In this document: piece after piece, positions 22,882-51,265 of the stretch
How the letters are laid out: each line of letters begins with the position of its first letter
How positions within the stretch are numbered: position 1 is the first letter of the stretch
From: an uncultured Alphaproteobacteria bacterium
GTDB taxonomy: Bacteria; Pseudomonadota; Alphaproteobacteria; RF32; CAG-239
NCBI GenBank assembly: GCA_944392205.1
Contig: CALXVV010000012.1
Span: forward strand, 403-64,402
Direction of reading: 5' to 3'
DNA length: 64,000 nucleotides
Translations under genes and position numbers: made by a program
The notes under the pieces: generated by a model
Told to the model about the DNA's origin: nothing
Seen by the model: only the letters and a program-made list of their open reading frames with translations
The model's database searches: none

Positions 22882-24375
22882 ATGGAGATTTCAGAACTGC
22901 ATTTGCAAAAAATGCGTTATCCGAATAATGATTTTGACAGCTATTTTATCACGGCACAAGAAGTGGCTGAGGTTTTGGCTGTGGGGAAAATTCCGCATAT
23001 TACTTTGCCGCAAAGCTCAAACGGCCCAACCGTTGCGGTTTTGATGGCGGTTGAAAAACACCCGGACCGCGAAGAGCCTGACTACTATGTGCCTGAATTT
23101 TATGTAGAGGCTATCACGCAAAATGGCGGAAACCCCGTTTTTATCGGTTTTGATAAAACAGCAGAACAACTGCAACAAACCATGCCGCAGGCCATATTAT
23201 TGGTGGGTGGGGATTTTGCCTTTCCGCCCGCTTGGTTGGAAGAAGGCATCCAAGCCCATGGCGGAAATCTGCGCCGAGAAAAAGCCTATGAGACCATGAT
23301 AACTTATGCCAAAGAGCACAAACTGCCGCTTTTGGGTATTTGCGCCGGAGAGCAGGTTTTGGCCGGAACTTTGGGGGCAAAACTTTGCATGGTCAAAGGG
23401 CACCGTGCCTCCTTGGATGATGATGCCCACCTGATTAACATTGTTCCCCACACTCTGCTCGCCAAATTGTGCGGGCTAAAAATGGCTAAAGTCAACTCTA
23501 ACCACCACATGGCTGTATCTGCTAAAACAAGCGGAGATTTTGTTGTCTCGGCCACGGCAGAAGACGGCACCATTGAGGCTATTGAGCCTAAAGACCCGTG
23601 GCATTATTTTGTTTTGGGCGTGCAATGGCACCCCGAGCGCATGGTAAAAAAAGAAGATTTTCTCACGGATAGAATCTTCAATGGTTTCATGAAAGCGGCT
23701 CGCGGCGGCTTTGTGCATAATCATGAGGCCATCCCCTTTTCTCAGGCGCCGATGGTTGAGATTGACGACCCGCATTTTATTGTTGATATGATGTATGCCA
23801 AACCCCAAAACCTCTCCGGACAGCCGGTTTATGAGCTTTGCGGAATCGGCAACCATGCCTATGTGCGGATTGAATTGTGGGAGGCCCTAAAAAAGCTTAT
23901 TCCCTGGCTTGAGGAACATCAGCTCAAGCTCAAAATATGCGATGCCTTCCGCCCGATGAGTGCGCATATGGCGCTCAAAGAGGCAATCCACGAGAAAGGG
24001 CCCGGAATTTTTGCCAGCCTTGCGCAAACATCTAAACACTGCCACGGAACCGCAGTTGATGTCTTGCTCACCGATATGAACGGCAACGAGCTTGCCTACC
24101 CCACAAAAGTTGACTGCTACCGTCCTGATTTGGCAGCCAAAATCCAAAAAGGCGACACAAAAGATTTTTATGAATACACCAAATGCGGCCGGCATGACTA
24201 TTTTGCTCCCAACCTGGAAAAAGAAATTGCCAACCGCGAACAGCTTAAAAATCTTATGGAAAGTGTCGGCCTCATCTCTTGGGTGGGCGAATGGTGGCAC
24301 TATGAACTGCCCGACGAGTTTAACCTTGTTTACCCACCGGTCGAGCGCCGGCCAGGCAAGCGCCTGGAGGCATAA
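22882..24375 (+). CDS. Two-domain enzyme: N-terminal class-I glutamine amidotransferase-like peptidase C26 (gamma-glutamyl hydrolase type) fused to a C-terminal D-alanyl-D-alanine dipeptidase (VanX/DdpX, peptidase M15D)
   Basis: N-terminal domain: LPLLGICAGEQV (nucleophile Cys elbow) and VLGVQWHPE (His/Glu). C-terminal domain: ICDAFRP, SKHCHGTAVD (SxHxxGxAxD zinc motif) and EWWHYE. The last ~13 codons and the stop codon lie inside a repeat element. Confidence 0.85.
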   Translation: MEISELHLQKMRYPNNDFDSYFITAQEVAEVLAVGKIPHITLPQSSNGPTVAVLMAVEKHPDREEPDYYVPEFYVEAITQNGGNPVFIGFDKTAEQLQQTMPQAILLVGGDFAFPPAWLEEGIQAHGGNLRREKAYETMITYAKEHKLPLLGICAGEQVLAGTLGAKLCMVKGHRASLDDDAHLINIVPHTLLAKLCGLKMAKVNSNHHMAVSAKTSGDFVVSATAEDGTIEAIEPKDPWHYFVLGVQWHPERMVKKEDFLTDRIFNGFMKAARGGFVHNHEAIPFSQAPMVEIDDPHFIVDMMYAKPQNLSGQPVYELCGIGNHAYVRIELWEALKKLIPWLEEHQLKLKICDAFRPMSAHMALKEAIHEKGPGIFASLAQTSKHCHGTAVDVLLTDMNGNELAYPTKVDCYRPDLAAKIQKGDTKDFYEYTKCGRHDYFAPNLEKEIANREQLKNLMESVGLISWVGEWWHYELPDEFNLVYPPVERRPGKRLEA

Positions 24376-24500
24376 CTTAGCTGGTGCGAACGCGCACTTC
24401 GACCAGGCAAGCGCCTGGAGGCATAATCAAGCTGTAAACCGCAAGGCTAAAAAGCCTCTTCATCTGAAGAGGCTTTTTACGGCTTGCTGGCGCCAGTGCC
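24338..24500. repeat. Mosaic palindromic repeat cluster (REP/RPE-like), copy A
   Basis: Units present: CCGGTCGAGCGCCGG, CCAGGCAAGCGCCTGG (twice), GTGCGAACGCGCAC, ..TAA(C/T)..AGCTG(T/G).., then the hairpin AAAAAGCCTCTTCATCTGAAGAGGCTTTTT and CGGCTTGCTGGCGCCAGTGCC. Homologous clusters lie at 28686-28879, 39283-39412 and 41175-41422. Confidence 0.85.
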
Positions 24501-24517
24501 TTGACCAAATAAATTAA

Positions 24518-24545
24518 TTGCATTTTAATTTTTCTGCTCTAATAT
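24518..24545 (+). promoter_or_regulatory. Predicted sigma70-type promoter of leader RNA copy A
   Basis: TTGCAT, 16-nt spacer, TAATAT. It is part of a 42-nt block (24514-24555) that is identical at 28912-28953 and 41455-41496. Confidence 0.6.
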
Positions 24546-24551
24546 CATTTC

Positions 24552-24874
24552 CGCAAGGGCGAGTTGCCCCTGCGGAGTGTAGAAGCTCCTCTCAAGAAAA
24601 AGAACAACTCCTTTATGGGGAGCTGGGGATATAAGTATGCTTGCATGACGAATAAGGCAGACTGTCACGGTACAGTTTCGTCTTGCTGCGTAGGTTTCGC
24701 GCTTTGCGCTCAACAACTCCGCTTCGGTCACTTGTTTTCTAATTTCGTTTCGCTTGCTCACACTTCACTCACTCAATCAAGAAAACTTACGCCTCTTGTG
24801 GTAAAATCAACCGGAGCAGCGGTTGATTTTATCCTCGAGCTCCCCGCCTTGATTTTTCAAGGAGGTTTCTTTTT
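24552..24874 (+). ncRNA. Structured leader RNA, copy A (long variant with a ~150-nt insert), ending in an intrinsic terminator
   Basis: Shares the P1 hairpin (GCAAGGGC-GAGUU-GCCCCUGC), the GGAG..CUCC hairpin and the conserved blocks AACUCCU..UGGGGAGC, AUAUAAG, GACGAAUAA and AGACUGU with copies B and C. The terminator CCGCCUUGA-UUUU-UCAAGGAGG plus U-tract is at 24844-24874. The 5' end is only predicted from the promoter. Confidence 0.6.
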
Positions 24875-24899
24875 AATAAGAAATTTAGGAGTTGAAACG

Positions 24900-25139
24900 A
24901 TGAATAATAAAAAACAAGCTATCAGAGAACTTATTCAAAATCACGGCACTATTGCTCAGCAACTTCACCAACTGAGAGTGTCTAAACAATTATCTTTAGA
25001 GAAACTTTCTCATGACACCAGAATTCCTCTCTACATTTTGGACGATATGGAAATTGGCTCTCACCCCTTGCAGCTTTCCAATCTCTATATCTTAGCCAAA
25101 TACTACGGCAAAAAAATTCATATCCAACTGATAGATTAA
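24900..25139 (+). CDS. XRE-family helix-turn-helix protein (79 aa)
   Basis: AGGAG lies 8 nt upstream of the ATG at 24900. The sequence QLRVSKQLSLEKLSHDTRIPLYILDDMEIG fits the Cro/C1-type HTH pattern. The track's 191-aa version reads through the leader RNA, so I rejected it. Confidence 0.7.
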   Translation: MNNKKQAIRELIQNHGTIAQQLHQLRVSKQLSLEKLSHDTRIPLYILDDMEIGSHPLQLSNLYILAKYYGKKIHIQLID

Positions 25140-28180: not shown

Positions 28181-28733
28181 AGACGGCGCTTGGCAGGAGG
28201 CAATTAAAGGCATTAAGAAAATTCCGCAAAAAGAGGAAAAGCCACAGCCTCCGCTGATTGTTGGCAAAATCTCGCCAAAGCTCAATTATGCAGAGGTTTA
28301 TTCCGGCGCGCCGTTGCAGCCGCTTGCGCTTGGCAACACTGATAATATCGACCGCCGCACGGCAGAAAAATTTAAGCGCGGCGAGTTTGCCATTGAGCGG
28401 CGTTTGGACTTGCACGGCATGACTGAAAAAGAGGCTTTTGCCGCAGTCGATGAGTTTGTCCGCAAGGCTTATATGCAAAAATGCCGCTGTTTGCTGATTG
28501 TCACCGGCAAAGGTCTCAACCGTGAGGATGATGCCTGGTATGAGAAAAAAGGCATCCTCAAAGATTGTGTGCCCAATTGGCTCAACGGCCCGGAGCTAAG
28601 GCCACTTATCTTGAGTATTTGCTATGCCCAACCCGAAGACGGCGGCACCGGCGCCATCTATGTTCTTCTCCGCTCTAGGCGGACGCCGGTCAAGCGACCG
28701 GAGGCAGTGCGAACGCGCACCTCGATAACTTAG
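28143..28733 (+). CDS. Smr domain protein
   Basis: Smr motif LDLHGMTEKEA...LLIVTGKG...L...V..WL. The final ~17 codons (RTPVKRPEAVRTRTSIT) and the stop codon are encoded by the repeat cluster. Confidence 0.8.
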   Translation: MKRLDQDVAPVDEDGAWQEAIKGIKKIPQKEEKPQPPLIVGKISPKLNYAEVYSGAPLQPLALGNTDNIDRRTAEKFKRGEFAIERRLDLHGMTEKEAFAAVDEFVRKAYMQKCRCLLIVTGKGLNREDDAWYEKKGILKDCVPNWLNGPELRPLILSICYAQPEDGGTGAIYVLLRSRRTPVKRPEAVRTRTSIT

Positions 28734-28879
28734 CTGTAACTCGCCCGGCTCCCTTTGGTCGGCGCGCTAATCGGCAGTGCCCAGGCAACGGCCTGGAGCG
28801 ATTACCAAGCTGTAACCCGCGAGACTAAAAAGCCGCTCCTCACAACGCGGCTTTTTACGCCTTGCTGATTTTGGGTGCC
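28686..28879. repeat. Mosaic palindromic repeat cluster, copy B
   Basis: CCGGTCAAGCGACCGG, GTGCGAACGCGCAC, ACTTAGCTGTAACTCGC, CCAGGCAACGGCCTGG, CAAGCTGTAACCCGC, then the hairpin AAAAAGCCGCTCCTCACAACGCGGCTTTTT. Confidence 0.85.
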
Positions 28880-28915
28880 ATAATCAAATAATCTTTGCCT
28901 TTCTAAACAATTTAA

Positions 28916-28943
28916 TTGCATTTTAATTTTTCTGCTCTAATAT
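28916..28943 (+). promoter_or_regulatory. Predicted sigma70-type promoter of leader RNA copy B
   Basis: TTGCAT, 16-nt spacer, TAATAT, within the identical 42-nt block. Confidence 0.6.
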
Positions 28944-28949
28944 CATTTC

Positions 28950-29122
28950 CGCAGACGCGAGTTGCGTCTGTGGAGTATCGAAACTCCTTTACAGCGAAAT
29001 AACTCCTCTTTTGGGGAGCCGGGGATATAAGCGTACTTGTATTGGTATGACGAATAACCCGGACTGTGCTGTAACAGTTTCGAACTCCCCACCTTGATTT
29101 TTAATCAAGGTGGTTTTGTTTT
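28950..29122 (+). ncRNA. Structured leader RNA, copy B (~173 nt), ending in an intrinsic terminator
   Basis: P1 is 28951-28958/28964-28971. The long-range helix is 28990-28995/29068-29073. CCGGG (29019-29023) pairs with CCCGG (29058-29062). The terminator CCACCUUGAU/AUCAAGGUGG plus UUUUGUUUU is at 29089-29122. Helices covary with copies A and C. Confidence 0.65.
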
Positions 29123-29143
29123 AACAAAACCGGAGTGAGAAAA

Positions 29144-29365
29144 ATGACTGAAACTCAAACTTTTTACAATGACATTCCCTCTAACACCGACCTCACTCAC
29201 AAAAGACTACGCTACCTGATTTGCCAACTTTATCACTTAGAAGGACAATGGGAAAATTTGCCCCTCAAAACCCAGCACAAACTCTGGCGCGCCCTACAAA
29301 CTAAAACTCTGCAAAACATCTTGAGTGATATGCCTGATTTTTCTCATCCCTTCATCTTGCCCTAA
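29144..29365 (+). CDS. Small conserved protein (73 aa), paralog of 41679..41897, unknown function
   Basis: GGAG RBS 9 nt upstream. Codon-by-codon comparison with the paralog shows 11 third-position synonymous differences and no amino-acid change over 71 codons. Confidence 0.85.
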   Translation: MTETQTFYNDIPSNTDLTHKRLRYLICQLYHLEGQWENLPLKTQHKLWRALQTKTLQNILSDMPDFSHPFILP

Positions 29366-29374
29366 CCACTAGGC

Positions 29375-29407
29375 AAAGCCCCGCTTGTTTTTTTCAAGCG
29401 GGGCTTT
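29375..29407. terminator. Bidirectional terminator between the small ORF and the ABC exporter gene
   Basis: AAAGCCCCGCTTG-TTTTTTT-CAAGCGGGGCTTT. Confidence 0.85.
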
Positions 29408-29420
29408 TGATTGCTGCCTA

Positions 29421-31202
29421 TTACTTATTGTTTTTGAACTGGGCGTTATAAAGAGAGCGGTAGGCGCCGTTTTCTTTTTGCAGTAGTTTTTCGTGGCTGC
29501 CTTGCTCGATAATCTCTCCGTCGTTAATCACCACTATCTCATCAGCATTCTGAATGGTTGATAAGCGGTGCGCTATCACAAATACTGTTCTGTCTTGCAT
29601 CAGGTTATCTATGGCTTTTTGCACCACGGCCTCTGATTTGTTATCCAAAGCCGAGGTGGCCTCGTCCAAAATAACTATCGGCGCATTCTTAACAAAAGCT
29701 CTGGCAATGGCCAACCTCTGCCGCTGGCCGCCGGAGAGCAAACTGCCGCGCTCGCCGATATCCGTATCTAAGCCGTTTTCCTGCTCGTTTACAAACTCTT
29801 TGAGATATGCCATCTCCAGGGCTTTGTTTATCTCCGCCTCGCTGGCATCGGGCTTGCCCATGAGAATATTATCGCGAATAGTGCCGGAGAACAAAAAGTT
29901 GTCTTGGAACACAACCGCTATATTATTTCGCAAGCTCTCCAAAGTGAAATCTCTGATATCTTTGCCGTCTATCTCTATTTTGCCGGAGCAAACATCGTAA
30001 AAACGCGGCAACAGACTCACAACCGTGGATTTTCCGCCGCCGGAGTTGCCGACTATTGCCGTGGTGGTGCCGGCCTTTACACGCAAGTTTATGTGCTTTA
30101 GCACCGGGGTCTCCGGATTATAGGCAAAGCAGACATCTTCAAATCTAATCTCTCGCCCTATCCTTTTGAGCTCCGTTGCTTGTGGCGCATTGGTTATCTT
30201 GGGCTTGATGTTTAAGATATCGGCTATTCTCTCTATGGCCAAAAATGAAACCTGAACCGCACTGAAGTTCTTGCCGATATTTTTTATCGGATTATACAGC
30301 ATAATCAATGCCGTGATGAATGATACAAAGTTACCCGAAGTTATTTCTCCGTTGACAATCAAATAACTACCATAGCCAATCACACCGCCGATACCTATTG
30401 AGGCAACAACGTGCAGCATTGGAGTCATCCAAGCCGTGCGCTGAACCATTTTGATTGAGAGCTTGAACAACTTGGTGATGACTGAATCATATTTCTCATA
30501 GGCTTGTTTTTGCAAATTATACGAGGCTATTGTCTTATTGCCGTGGTAGGTTTCGTTATAATTGGTTAAAATCGTGGAATTTTCCTGCACGGTTTTATAG
30601 ATAATCCCCTTAATCATTCGGCGCAGACGAGCCAAGGGCATCAAAGCGCAGACCAAAACCAAAATCGCAATAATGGATAACTGCCAAGAATTATATATCA
30701 AAACCCCTATCAATGACAGAGAAGAAAACACTCTTGAGACAAACAAGCGAATATTGTCTATCAGCCCCGTGCAGGCTGTGTCGACATCTGCCGAAAAACG
30801 CTGAATGATATGCCCGGAATCGTGCTTGTCATAAAAAGCCGGCTCCAAAAACAAAAGCTTCTTAAACAAGGCTCTTTTGACATCAGTGGTGATCTTGCCG
30901 CCCACCCACGCATTCAAGTATGTGGCGGCATAGTTAAAGCCTCCCTGCACCAGAGTAAATGCCACAATCAGCAACGGAATATAGGCCGGCGAATGCGCAC
31001 TCTTGTCGACCAAAACAACATCCATATAGGGTTTGAGTGCCAAAGCAACAACAGCGTCCAAAGCGCCAATCGGGATACACAACGCAATCGCCAAAAATGC
31101 CCTAAACATATAGGGTTTTACAAACGGCCACATAATCTTGTAGTGGTCCATAAACGGCAGTTTGGGAGATTCTTTTATCTTTTTCTCTTTTTGATTTGAC
31201 AT
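29421..31202 (-). CDS. ABC transporter permease/ATP-binding protein (MsbA/exporter type)
   Basis: Six-helix N-terminal transmembrane domain. Walker A GNSGGGKST, signature LSGGQRQR, Walker B ILDEATSALD. Confidence 0.9.
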   Translation of the reverse strand: MSNQKEKKIKESPKLPFMDHYKIMWPFVKPYMFRAFLAIALCIPIGALDAVVALALKPYMDVVLVDKSAHSPAYIPLLIVAFTLVQGGFNYAATYLNAWVGGKITTDVKRALFKKLLFLEPAFYDKHDSGHIIQRFSADVDTACTGLIDNIRLFVSRVFSSLSLIGVLIYNSWQLSIIAILVLVCALMPLARLRRMIKGIIYKTVQENSTILTNYNETYHGNKTIASYNLQKQAYEKYDSVITKLFKLSIKMVQRTAWMTPMLHVVASIGIGGVIGYGSYLIVNGEITSGNFVSFITALIMLYNPIKNIGKNFSAVQVSFLAIERIADILNIKPKITNAPQATELKRIGREIRFEDVCFAYNPETPVLKHINLRVKAGTTTAIVGNSGGGKSTVVSLLPRFYDVCSGKIEIDGKDIRDFTLESLRNNIAVVFQDNFLFSGTIRDNILMGKPDASEAEINKALEMAYLKEFVNEQENGLDTDIGERGSLLSGGQRQRLAIARAFVKNAPIVILDEATSALDNKSEAVVQKAIDNLMQDRTVFVIAHRLSTIQNADEIVVINDGEIIEQGSHEKLLQKENGAYRSLYNAQFKNNK

Positions 31203-48296: not shown

Positions 48297-48449
48297 AATT
48301 TTTTCCTTTCTTGTTTGCCAAACGTCTCAATGTAGCAAAAAAACTCTAAAATTTGGTAAAAACGTAAATTTAGCTTCAAAAGAGGTCTTGACTTTAAATA
48401 CAATATTCGTATATATTTGGATATGTTTAACGTACATTTGGAGGAATTT

Positions 48450-49448
48450 ATGGATAAAGATTTGAGCTTTGCAGAAGATTTGGAACTGAAATTAGACGGC
48501 AAACGCCCGATTAGGCGTGAAAACCCTAAAAAAGGACAAAGTCGGTGGTATTATGTTGACCCTCGTGAAAGAGATGAGGATTTTACACTCTTATCGCAGA
48601 TGAAAACCATAGATGTACCAAGCCCCAACACGCCTAATCCGGCTCTGCAACAGGTGATGTTTGAAGATGCTGAAAACAATCCTGATAAATATTATATTTG
48701 GCGCACCGTTGGCGATGACAAAGTCAGAGATTCTCATGCCGAGCGTGAAGGCTGTATTTTTAGTTGGGATGATGCTCCGGAAGGCGGGCATCCGGGAGAA
48801 GACTACAACTGCCGCTGTATTGCCGAACCCTACGTTCCCAGAAAAGACTCTTCTGAATCCGATGAACAATGGCGGCAACGCTTGCTTACAACGATGAAAG
48901 AATACTTACTTGAAGAAGAAGACTTGAAAAATCATATTTATTTAGACACCAAGGGATTTAAGACTGTTGGAGCCGGAAAAAATATTGATAAATGGGGAGA
49001 TTTTAAGAAAATTAATTGGGAGGTTGACGGCAGACCGGCAACAGAAGAAGAAAAATTGGCAGGATTTGAGCGTTATGAGGAATTAAAACAACAAAAATTC
49101 TTCGGACCAAATGTTACCTCTGATTTTTTTGAAGACAAAAGCAATCTCCGTATCAGCGAAAAAGAGGCAGAGCACCTTTTGGAGCAACATATTAAAAATG
49201 ATTTGAATAAATTGGAAACATATGTTTCCGGATTTAGAGACTTTCCGTTTGGGCTACAACAAGTTTTGCTTGATATTCGCTACAATACAGGGAATGCCGA
49301 CAGAAGAAATTGGCCAAATTTATATGAGGCTATTGATAAACGAGATATCCGCGGTATGGCCAACAATGTTAATCGAAAAGATGTTGGAGAGAGCAGAAAT
49401 CAATGGGCAAAAGAGACTATTCTTTCAATTAGAAATTGGGGATATTAA
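48450..49448 (+). CDS. Fusion protein: phage Mu-F/SPP1-gp7-like core motif plus a T4-type (GH24-like) lysozyme domain
   Basis: A strong GGAGG RBS lies before the ATG at 48450. The MuF core is WRTVGDDKVRDSHAEREGCIF...DYNCRCI. The lysozyme N-lobe EEEDLKNHIYLDTKGFKTVGAG has Glu, Asp and Thr spaced exactly as E11/D20/T26 of T4 lysozyme ([20 protein letters not shown]). The later LLDIRYNTG and NQWAKE resemble the T4L C-lobe. Confidence 0.8.
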   Translation: MDKDLSFAEDLELKLDGKRPIRRENPKKGQSRWYYVDPRERDEDFTLLSQMKTIDVPSPNTPNPALQQVMFEDAENNPDKYYIWRTVGDDKVRDSHAEREGCIFSWDDAPEGGHPGEDYNCRCIAEPYVPRKDSSESDEQWRQRLLTTMKEYLLEEEDLKNHIYLDTKGFKTVGAGKNIDKWGDFKKINWEVDGRPATEEEKLAGFERYEELKQQKFFGPNVTSDFFEDKSNLRISEKEAEHLLEQHIKNDLNKLETYVSGFRDFPFGLQQVLLDIRYNTGNADRRNWPNLYEAIDKRDIRGMANNVNRKDVGESRNQWAKETILSIRNWGY

Positions 49449-49840
49449 TCCTTTGGGATGAAAAACCAGGAAATTCCGTTAATTTGCCCGTTGGTGTTGG
49501 CAGTATATTCTTTAACCCTCCATTTTGCATAGCTGCAGCGGTCTTTGCAGGGAAATATTTGATAGGTATAAATATACGTTACGTCTCTGTTGCTCAGTGG
49601 ATTGAAAAACGTGCACTTGAGCGAGACTTTTTCCAAGGCGTTTTCTAACAGCTCACATTCCTCTATTTGCTCATATCCATCATTGGAAATACGGACCCGG
49701 GTCGGAGAAAGTTGAGTTGTCCATGCCATTCGTGAAATTGGTTTCAACGTCTCGTTAAATAACGGATTTACAAATTCTTCCGATGAAAATATCCGGCAAG
49801 ATGATACAAACACTACTAAAAACAACAATAACTTTCTCAT
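49445..49840 (-). CDS. Small exported (lipobox-like) protein, paralog 1 of 3
   Basis: MRKLLLFLVVFVSSC signal/lipobox, AAGGAGG RBS, 131 aa. Near-identical to 49909..50304. Confidence 0.75.
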   Translation of the reverse strand: MRKLLLFLVVFVSSCRIFSSEEFVNPLFNETLKPISRMAWTTQLSPTRVRISNDGYEQIEECELLENALEKVSLKCTFFNPLSNRDVTYIYTYQIFPCKDRCSYAKWRVKEYTANTNGQINGISWFFIPKD

Positions 49841-49861
49841 GTGAAACAGACCTCCTTATTA

Positions 49862-49884
49862 GATAGACATCAGGATTTTTTCAT
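49862..49884 (-). pseudogene. 23-nt remnant of the 5' end of a second copy of the 157-aa gene (duplication/deletion scar)
   Basis: 49862-49908 (GATAGACATCAGGATTTTTTCATTATGACATTATCCTTTCTGACAAACTAATC) matches 50816-50863. The latter is the start of gene 50366..50839 plus the spacer to paralog 3. Confidence 0.7.
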
Positions 49885-49908
49885 TATGACATTATCCTTT
49901 CTGACAAA

Positions 49909-50304
49909 CTAATCCTTTGGGATGAAGAACCATGCAATTCCGTTAATTTGCCCGTTGGTGTTGGCAGTATATTCTTTAACTGTCCATTTTGCATAGCTGC
50001 AGCGGTCTTTGCAAGGGAATATTTGATAGGTATAAATATACGTTACGTCTCTGTTACTCAGCGGATTGAAAAATGTGCACTTGAGGGAGACTTTTTCCCA
50101 GGCGTTTTCTAACAGCTCACACTTTTTTATTACCTCATATCCGGCGTTGGAAATACGAACCCGGGTCGGAGAAAGTTGGGTTGTCCATGCCATTCGTGAA
50201 ATTGGTTTCAACGTCTCGTTAAATAACGGATTTACAAATTCTTCCGATGAAAATATCCGGCAAGATGATACAAACACTACTAAAAACAACAATAACCTTC
50301 TCAT
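49909..50304 (-). CDS. Small exported (lipobox-like) protein, paralog 2 of 3
   Basis: 131 aa, with 8 amino-acid differences from paralog 1 and the same RBS and leader. Confidence 0.75.
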   Translation of the reverse strand: MRRLLLFLVVFVSSCRIFSSEEFVNPLFNETLKPISRMAWTTQLSPTRVRISNAGYEVIKKCELLENAWEKVSLKCTFFNPLSNRDVTYIYTYQIFPCKDRCSYAKWTVKEYTANTNGQINGIAWFFIPKD

Positions 50305-50365
50305 GTGAAACAGACCTCCTTATTAGATAGTTTGATTTTAATAATAGGCTTTAAAATTTGGCCGT

Positions 50366-50839
50366 TTAATTTGCAGTTAGTATCTTTTTCGTATAAATTA
50401 ACATTCTCAAAACAGCGTCTCGTACAAGGTTTTCGACTTCTGTCGAACTCAGTCTATCCGCAACTGAACCACAGAATAAATGCTCATTCTCACTATAACA
50501 AGCATTGCTATAATTGTACATTGAGGCATTCCATTCATAAGCCGCAGAAATAAACTTCGAAAAAGCTTTTTTCATTTCTGTTTCTTTTTCCGCATAAAAT
50601 AACTCAAATGTTTCGTTGGCAACTTTTTGATAGCATTTGACTAATTCATTATTAAGCTTTTGTATTTTTCTGTTGTCTTCTTTTTGCTCTGCCACAGCCA
50701 AATTCTGCTTTTGTGCCAGCAAACAGTTATCAACCGCCTTGCCCAACCTCTCAATATCTGAAAGTGATTTATTGGTATCAGCAAGAGAGGCTGACGTTGC
50801 AAAAAGTAAAAATAAGATAGACATCAGGATTTTTTTCAT
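50366..50839 (-). CDS. Secreted helical four-Cys protein (157 aa), unknown function
   Basis: Signal peptide MKKILMSILFLLFATSASLA. It is embedded in the paralog array. There is only a very weak pattern resemblance to DUF1311/LprI-type proteins. Confidence 0.7.
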   Translation of the reverse strand: MKKILMSILFLLFATSASLADTNKSLSDIERLGKAVDNCLLAQKQNLAVAEQKEDNRKIQKLNNELVKCYQKVANETFELFYAEKETEMKKAFSKFISAAYEWNASMYNYSNACYSENEHLFCGSVADRLSSTEVENLVRDAVLRMLIYTKKILTAN

Positions 50840-50863
50840 TATGACATTATCCTTTCTGACAAA

Positions 50864-51265
50864 CTAATCTTCTGAAATAGAGAACCAAGTAATTCCGTTA
50901 ACTTGCCCATCGGTGTTTGCCATATATTCTTTGACTTTCCATTGCGCATAGTTGCAGAAATAACCTTTGCAAGGGAATATTTGATAGGTATAAATATACG
51001 TTACGTCTCTGTTGCTCAGCGGATTGAAAAATGTGCACTTTAGAGAGACTTTTTCCCAGGCGTTTTCTAACAGCTCACACTTTTTTATTACCTCATATCC
51101 GGCGTTGGAAATACGAACCCGGGTCGGAGAAAGTTGGGTCGTCCAGCCAGTTCGTGAAGTTGGTTTCAACGTCTCGTTAAATAACGGATTTACAAATTCT
51201 TCCGATGAAAATATCCGGCAAGATGATACAAACACTACTACTAAAAACATCAATAACCTTCTCAT
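50864..51265 (-). CDS. Small exported (lipobox-like) protein, paralog 3 of 3 (more divergent C-terminus)
   Basis: 133 aa. The N-terminal two thirds are almost identical to paralog 2, and the C-terminal third diverges (CKGYFCNYAQWKVKEYMANTDGQVNGITWFSISED). Confidence 0.75.
   Translation of the reverse strand: MRRLLMFLVVVFVSSCRIFSSEEFVNPLFNETLKPTSRTGWTTQLSPTRVRISNAGYEVIKKCELLENAWEKVSLKCTFFNPLSNRDVTYIYTYQIFPCKGYFCNYAQWKVKEYMANTDGQVNGITWFSISED

Follow-up and report, generated by a model that had tools for sequence, protein, structure and literature searches.

Organization of the small-ORF units

The window, which is the whole 64,000-nt stretch of DNA from an uncultured alphaproteobacterium that was analysed here, contains two copies (A and B) of a small open reading frame (ORF), each preceded by a promoter-like element, a structured leader RNA and an intrinsic terminator, while a third promoter and leader precede a gene encoding a helix-turn-helix (HTH) protein. 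The features of the three units are as follows.

28916..28943 (+), promoter-like element of unit A, TTGCAT-16 nt-TAATAT, identical in the window's three units
28947..29090 (+), leader RNA core of unit A (covariance model match of 120 bits, fold z-score -8.7, covariation)
29089..29122 (+), intrinsic terminator of leader A, an 11-bp stem (29089-29113) and UUUUGUUUU, 21 nt before the start codon
29132..29135 (+), Shine-Dalgarno sequence GGAG of ORF A, paired with the conserved pre-terminator ACUCC in the minimum-free-energy fold
29144..29365 (+), small ORF copy A, 73 aa and stop, translation MTETQTFYNDIPSNTDLTHKRLRYLICQLYHLEGQWENLPLKTQHKLWRALQTKTLQNILSDMPDFSHPFILP
29375..29409 (+), terminator-like hairpin 3' of ORF A, AAAGCCCCGCUUG...CAAGCGGGGCUUUU, read in the sequence
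41459..41486 (+), promoter-like element of unit B, with the same sequence as that of unit A
41490..41624 (+), leader RNA core of unit B (76% identity with leader A)
41623..41655 (+), intrinsic terminator of leader B, stem 41623-41646 and UUUUGUUUU (terminator scan)
41679..41897 (+), small ORF copy B, 72 aa and stop, with the sequence of A except for the end, ...HPFII
24518..24899 (+), third promoter and leader copy, core 24549-24689, with a ~170-nt insertion before the terminator
24900..25139 (+), XRE/Cro-type HTH protein of 79 aa behind the third leader, the usual cargo class

In each unit a sigma-70-like promoter is followed by a pseudoknotted leader RNA of ~140 nt, which an intrinsic terminator closes, and then by a Shine-Dalgarno sequence and a single ORF. 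The TTGCAT-16 nt-TAATAT element lies in a 60-nt stretch that is identical upstream of A and B, and related leaders carry TTGACA or TTGCAA and TAnnAT at the matching position. A generic promoter scan made no call for the unit A element because its -35 matches at only three of six positions; the element is a putative promoter, assigned by its position. GGAG and ATG come 21-23 nt after the terminators of A and B, leaving no room for a further promoter between terminator and start codon, and the terminator stem covaries among the copies (CACCUUGA / CUCCUUAA / CGCCUUAA). The hairpin at 29375..29409 was not listed by a generic terminator scan of 28700-29450, and the Rfam partial matches there are terminator-like only; since a terminator-like hairpin follows ORF A, unit A looks monocistronic. 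A leader peptide was considered and rejected, as the short ATG-initiated frames of leader A share neither frame nor sequence with those of leader B, and all lack a Shine-Dalgarno sequence.

Several other features of the window were recorded. REP-like arrays with units of ~37-39 nt lie upstream of each unit (~24330-24445, 28650-28825, 39285-39320 and 41185-41370), with ..ATAACTTAGCTGTAACYCGC after a GC-rich hairpin (CCGGTCAAGCGACCGG, CCAGGCAACGGCCTGG or GTGCGAACGCGCAC) in each repeat unit. A shared terminator, AAAAAGCCGCTCCTCACAAAGCGGCTTTTT, follows the arrays and is present in four copies (repeat family D2). The region 39440-39600, after the fourth REP/terminator module, contains a near-consensus promoter (TTGACA-17 nt-TATAAA) and then two hairpins with U-runs, and could represent an unrelated small RNA that precedes the gene starting at 39609. 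On the reverse strand, three tandem paralogous ORFs at 49445-51265 (131-133 aa), which share 92% and 67% nucleotide identity and whose N-termini resemble signal peptides or those of lipoproteins, follow a 343-aa protein (48417-49448), which we take, from reading the sequence by eye, to carry a putative Mu-F-like or polymorphic-toxin-like motif; the tandem array appears to resemble immunity genes.

Coding status and family of the small protein

A codon-by-codon recount of copies A and B found 11 nucleotide differences over 71 codons, in codons 8, 19, 22, 44, 47, 58, 61, 64, 65, 67 and 71. All 11 are third-position and synonymous, with no amino-acid replacement in codons 1-71; codon 72 is L in A and I in B, and codon 73 is P in A and stop in B. 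These are exactly the 11 silent differences listed in the original prediction, whose statement that no residue changes over 71 codons and that only the last one or two codons differ agrees with the recount. That prediction had named nonsynonymous differences comparable in number to synonymous ones as the finding that would speak against it, and the counts for codons 1-71 are 0 and 11, respectively. With S = 43.7 synonymous sites, pS is 0.25 and pN is 0 (Nei-Gojobori), and 11 random substitutions on the ORF would all be silent with p ~3e-8 (any substitution) or 9e-6 (transitions only). The synonymous pattern between A and B is far beyond chance. Downstream, the homology of the two copies stops at codon 71/72, and upstream it extends across the leader and promoter.

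The comparison was extended to 11 loci (3-4 per MAG) from three MAGs that carry the label uncultured Alphaproteobacteria or proteobacterium, and to public assemblies holding the exact proteins, with 14 DNA copies compared in all. The exact protein of ORF A is present on at least 20 public contigs, each time unnamed. Over codons 1-63, pN/pS is 0-0.16 between close copies and reaches 0.24-0.27 in the comparison with a 62%-identical homolog. Homologs at 55-67% identity (the sister clade) keep the start, the frame and the N-terminus, and 31 residues are invariant in all homologs, including T2, E3, Q5, T6, Y8, N9, D10, C27, Y30, E33, G34, W36, E37, P40 and W48. The family-wide pN/pS of ~0-0.24 (14 DNA copies and the sister-clade homologs) indicates a translated gene under purifying selection. 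It is scarcely credible that the identity of A and B reflects recent duplication or gene conversion combined with constraint at the RNA or DNA level instead of selection on the protein, for although gene conversion among the copies is real and the promoter is likewise identical among them, conversion cannot sort differences into synonymous sites (11/11), the variable columns of the DNA copies fall 14/7/29 by codon position, no conserved ORF was found in the other frames or on the opposite strand, and codons 2, 4 and 6 of the 62%-identical homolog carry silent differences with the peptide TETQT unchanged, so that the N-terminal constraint is on the protein and not on the RNA. To judge from these substitution patterns, the small ORF is a genuine protein-coding gene under strong purifying selection, and the earlier claim that it encodes a real protein and is no artefact is upheld by the pN/pS values, the codon-position bias and the homologs that share its frame.

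The proteins of the family are 65-73 residues long, with a conserved core formed by residues 1-63 (sequence stretch MTETQTFYNDIPSNTDLTHK...) and a C-terminal tail that is variable (FSHPFILP or DDTPLSTLLNPAGA) or missing. The small protein has a mass of 8.8 kDa, a pI of 6.9 (5.5 in the sister clade) and a GRAVY of -0.59; the near-neutral pI means that nucleic-acid binding is not suggested. The hydropathy maximum is 0.19 (Kyte-Doolittle, 19-residue window), and a hydrophobic transmembrane segment, the mark of type I toxins and small membrane peptides, was not found by this measure. AlphaFold places helices at residues ~3-9, 16/19-33, 41-51 and 54-62, with low confidence (pLDDT 61 and 62 from 6- and 11-sequence alignments). 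The best reading of these predictions is a probably soluble, cytoplasmic and mostly helical protein, in keeping with the original description of a helical protein without a signal peptide or transmembrane segment, for which a structure prediction had been called for.

Relatives are few. The protein is represented by three clusters among 5.8 billion proteins, and an exhaustive HMMER/phmmer search of 1.84 billion representatives returned two true relatives (P0003 and P0004); the phmmer matches P0005 and P0006 (425 and 460 aa, with 5-6 matched stretches) were rejected as translated repetitive DNA and not homologs. A profile search gave nine clusters and five more homologs of 65 aa (one of 91 aa) at 56-67% identity. 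Pfam (E <= 10) gave two sub-threshold noise matches only (PRANC and MgtE_N), NCBIfam, PHROG and PADLOC gave noise only and no relative, and a sequence profile search of the PDB gave no match. In Foldseek comparisons of the pLDDT 61-62 model with PDB and BFVD nothing reached E <= 0.001, the best values being 3.7-9.9 for BFVD and 6.7 for PDB, and tblastn of 50,697 phage and 72,556 plasmid records did not find the small protein. The statement that no family is recognisable thus holds against Pfam, NCBIfam, PHROG, PADLOC, PDB sequences and Foldseek. As far as these searches reach, the protein appears to be an orphan family restricted to one narrow lineage of uncultured gut Alphaproteobacteria.

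The leader RNA, its cargo and the history of the units

A covariance model built from 37 diverse representatives identified three leader copies in a scan of the window. Leader A is composed of hairpins P1 and P2, helix P3, hairpin P4 and P5; the P2 loop forms a pseudoknot with a 3' segment, and P5 carries a conserved GAUAUAAG / CGAAUAA internal loop. The differences between leaders A and B are concentrated in helices, as compensatory changes. Among 74 distinct sequences, standard pairs occupy 94.8% of cells, compared with 73% in shuffles and 34-57% in slid-partner controls, and double-sided changes number 411, compared with 136 in shuffles. The hairpin of CUG and CAG proposed by RNAalifold was rejected; it appeared, and P3 was missed, because the MAFFT alignment was out of register at P3. 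The P3 helix and the pseudoknot were tested by self versus non-self duplex energy in place of column alignment, which gave -7.0 versus -2.0 kcal/mol for P3 and -3.5 versus -0.7 kcal/mol for the pseudoknot (P2 loop and 3' segment), with p < 1e-13 in both cases and likewise for P5. Between the variable, compensating helices lie invariant single-stranded or internal-loop words (GGGGAG, GAUAUAAG, CGAAUAA, CUG, CAGU and ACUCCCC). The leader is a genuine structured RNA with strong covariation. Against the 4227 families of Rfam 15, the window gave no gathering-score match, and at E <= 10 only chance-level, terminator-type partial matches, while Tandem Repeats Finder detected no repeat array in any leader. 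The ~170-nt insertion variant (24690-24860 of the window, and also L003, L006 and L138) precedes either an HTH gene or the small ORF, depending on the genome.

The leader core is present upstream of the small ORF in every one of the 27 copies whose upstream DNA extends for at least 230 nt, including those of the distant 65-aa homologs, and in these 27 the start codon lies ~20-25 nt past the intrinsic terminator. The survey of homologs proposed with the original prediction thus gives an obligate association (27/27); the link between ORF and leader is obligate and runs through the terminator.

The leader itself is far more widespread, being present on at least 120 gut and rumen metagenome contigs by an exact-pattern scan (largely human-gut assemblies, the others JGI/ENA records), and the pattern was not found on viral contigs. 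The matches listed, together with targeted retrieval, comprise 135 leaders, 104 of which have a readable downstream gene. The cargo of these 104 leaders, among the matches listed, is as follows.

small XRE/Cro-type HTH proteins (HTH_31, HTH_25, HTH_3), 80/104
MTETQT small protein, 14/104, mostly from targeted retrieval
BspA-type LRR secreted proteins, 5/104
pilin-like proteins, 2/104
outer-membrane beta-barrel proteins, 2/104
larger HTH_3 protein, 1/104

A gene with its own Shine-Dalgarno sequence follows the leader within ~20-130 nt. Among the matches listed, 31 leaders have no readable gene behind them, and for 30 of these the contig end is 55-190 nt away, as expected of a multi-copy repeat at which assemblies break. 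At some loci, two tandem leaders were observed ~260 nt apart, in each case before one HTH gene (2195-2334 and 2453-2591 in L039, 156-302 and 418-559 in L035, and 2205-2331 and 2449-2592 in L112); some riboswitches and attenuators likewise occur in tandem. Literature searches found no description of the leader RNA or the small protein. A catalogue of human-microbiome RNAs notes that HTH-XRE genes often lie next to its candidates (PMC8040213) and may contain the leader; a search for the conserved words of the leader, covering 200 of the catalogue's 408 supplementary files, gave no match.

Copy A, at a secondary paralog site, has an Smr-domain gene on one side and a convergent ABC-transporter gene on the other, while copy B is flanked by tgt (38098-39303, -), phoB (42472-43194, -) and rpe (43205-43846, -). 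The phoB gene was identified by TIGR02154 (310 bits, above cutoff), and the idea of a CtrA/SciP-like partner was dropped, the neighbouring response regulator being PhoB and not CtrA. The phoB gene appears to be co-transcribed with rpe, and a histidine-kinase gene is not adjacent. In the sister clade, the 65-aa homologs are single copy and always lie between tgt and convergent phoB-rpe; since these distant homologs share the order tgt, ORF, phoB, rpe with copy B, the site of B is regarded as ancestral. Other secondary sites include one after ftsI and one carrying a long-tail variant. The synteny indicates that the leader-plus-ORF unit began between tgt and phoB and spread to ~4 loci in the window's clade. 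Between the clades, Tgt and PhoB are 89-91% identical and the small protein ~62% identical, and the small protein appears to evolve fast yet under constraint. A rumen contig (L027) with a tgt-adjacent leader and HTH gene was considered as a cargo swap at the same locus and set aside, as its orientation differs.

The original prediction had also held that the 11 silent differences argue against very recent gene conversion, and this part needs correction. Variable sites of the ORF are mosaic among copies, all four gametes occur in 157 of 325 informative site pairs, and leader alleles do not track loci. The Smr/ABC site carries an A-type leader in the window and in L005, a B-type leader (96-99% identity with leader B) in L002, L140 and L141, and in L006 an insertion-type leader that is otherwise found before the HTH gene. 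The paralogous copies exchange segments by gene conversion, for which the identical promoter and the near-identical ORF may serve as homology arms, allowing leader alleles to be exchanged. The argument from selection is not weakened, because conversion cannot make differences synonymous; only the explanation of how the copies stay alike changes.

Proposed regulation of the units and relation to known systems

The architecture of the unit appears to be that of an attenuator- or riboswitch-controlled gene. As in a generic cis-regulatory attenuator, a covarying RNA lies directly upstream of the gene (in 27 of 27 ORF copies), and an intrinsic terminator separates the core of this RNA from the start codon; any mRNA that covers the ORF must read through this terminator, since it ends 21 nt before the start codon. 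When the promoter fires, the leader RNA would fold and the terminator would stop transcription unless read-through is allowed; the leader would be an attenuator, riboswitch-like or factor-binding, that decides on read-through, so that the protein would be made only then. The invariant core, identical in every unit, suggests a ligand or factor that would be common to all copies. The ACUCC segment may in addition mask the Shine-Dalgarno sequence, in which case release of the ribosome-binding site may also be needed. The leader shares with riboswitch and attenuator genes a covarying, pseudoknotted, aptamer-like core followed by a terminator and possible Shine-Dalgarno masking, as well as tandem copies at some loci and coherent cargo. 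Unlike known riboswitches, it has no match among the 4227 Rfam families, its cargo consists of small regulators and surface proteins and not of metabolic genes, and its alleles are shuffled between paralogous units.

Elsewhere the leader family would control mainly small XRE regulators and some cell-surface proteins, which may hint at a regulatory or adaptor role for the small protein. The XRE/Cro-C1 HTH regulators (HTH_3, HTH_31 and HTH_25) occupy the same slot behind the same leader, as at 24900-25139, and the leader-borne ones are of similar size (75-116 aa), mostly monocistronic and multi-copy. In contrast to them, the small protein has no Pfam similarity to the HTH family and lacks its conserved C-terminal '...Y.K.I.IELVD' strand, and descent from the HTH cargo was rejected after hhalign against the leader-associated HTH alignment gave a probability of 0.1%. 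For the five-helix, lambda-repressor-like fold of these regulators, the observations on the small protein are the AlphaFold helices given above (pLDDT 61-62) and the Foldseek comparisons. A tentative suggestion is that the small protein belongs to the regulon of the XRE proteins as a regulator or adaptor; it would act by protein-protein contact and not as an enzyme, toxin or membrane peptide. Hha and YmoA are small helical modulators, and the likeness to them in size, predicted all-helical fold, near-neutral charge and several paralogs per genome provides a lead only; the Pfam-A scan at E <= 10 returned nothing beyond PRANC and MgtE_N, and the low-confidence model is too weak for structural comparison.

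An unlikely explanation, though the best placed of the alternatives, is that the leader is an independent, terminated, trans-acting sRNA and the ORF is expressed by constitutive leaky read-through, the RNA not being a sensor. The strong consensus-like promoter and the efficient-looking terminator would yield an abundant ~170-nt RNA, and the element is multi-copy, with leaders at contig ends that have no readable gene (30/31 among the matches listed). Set against this, a gene with its own Shine-Dalgarno sequence always lies within ~20-130 nt with no room for a promoter, tandem leaders stand before single genes, the Shine-Dalgarno sequence pairs with a conserved leader segment, and the cargo classes are coherent, all of which are features of cis-regulators.

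The small protein might instead be a feedback component that binds its own leader, or the leader's factor, and tunes read-through in an antiterminator- or anti-antiterminator-like autoregulation, which is regarded as rather improbable. Such a role would fit the obligate association with the leader and the several paralogs per genome, each with its own leader allele; however, the protein is not basic (pI 6.9 and 5.5), it matches no RNA-binding family, and most leaders in other taxa work without it.

Type III toxin-antitoxin loci (ToxIN, CptIN and TenpIN) consist of a promoter, a non-coding RNA, a terminator and a protein gene, an order that the unit matches, and the unit has spread to several loci and its copies recombine, which could be seen as the addictive or mobile behaviour of a toxin-antitoxin-like or selfish module. 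This explanation is nevertheless very improbable. The leader has a single complex fold and no tandem direct repeats, the protein has ~70 aa compared with ~170 aa for a type III toxin and is neutral and not hydrophobic, and PADLOC and Pfam gave no ToxN/AbiQ-like, toxin or defence match. Moreover, phage and plasmid records and viral contigs gave no matches, most leaders stand before genes for ordinary HTH regulators and surface proteins, and in the sister clade the unit is single copy at a stable syntenic site.

The joint reading of an orphan small protein encoded by a leader-gated unit, with a regulatory or adaptor output and spread of the unit from the tgt-phoB site, is considered reasonably probable. 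By the searches made here, the RNA appears to fall outside every Rfam family and the protein outside every protein family searched. A bolder version, which should be viewed as speculative, is that a new class of riboswitch-like or factor-binding RNA, widespread in gut and rumen Alphaproteobacteria, gates a regulon of small regulators and adhesion or surface proteins, that the 72-aa protein is a novel small regulatory output of this class, and that the homology arms formed by promoter and ORF exchange leader alleles.

The analysis provides a verified small-protein family that is beyond naming by standard annotation tools and is tied to an unclassified structured RNA present on at least 120 contigs from human-gut and rumen metagenomes. 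Should this RNA be a sensor, the cargo behind it, comprising small XRE regulators, the orphan protein and BspA-type LRR, pilin-like and outer-membrane proteins, would point to an unstudied signalling circuit in poorly known, uncultured gut Alphaproteobacteria. The units also offer a clean natural example in which purifying selection keeps a small gene while gene conversion shuffles its leader among paralogs.
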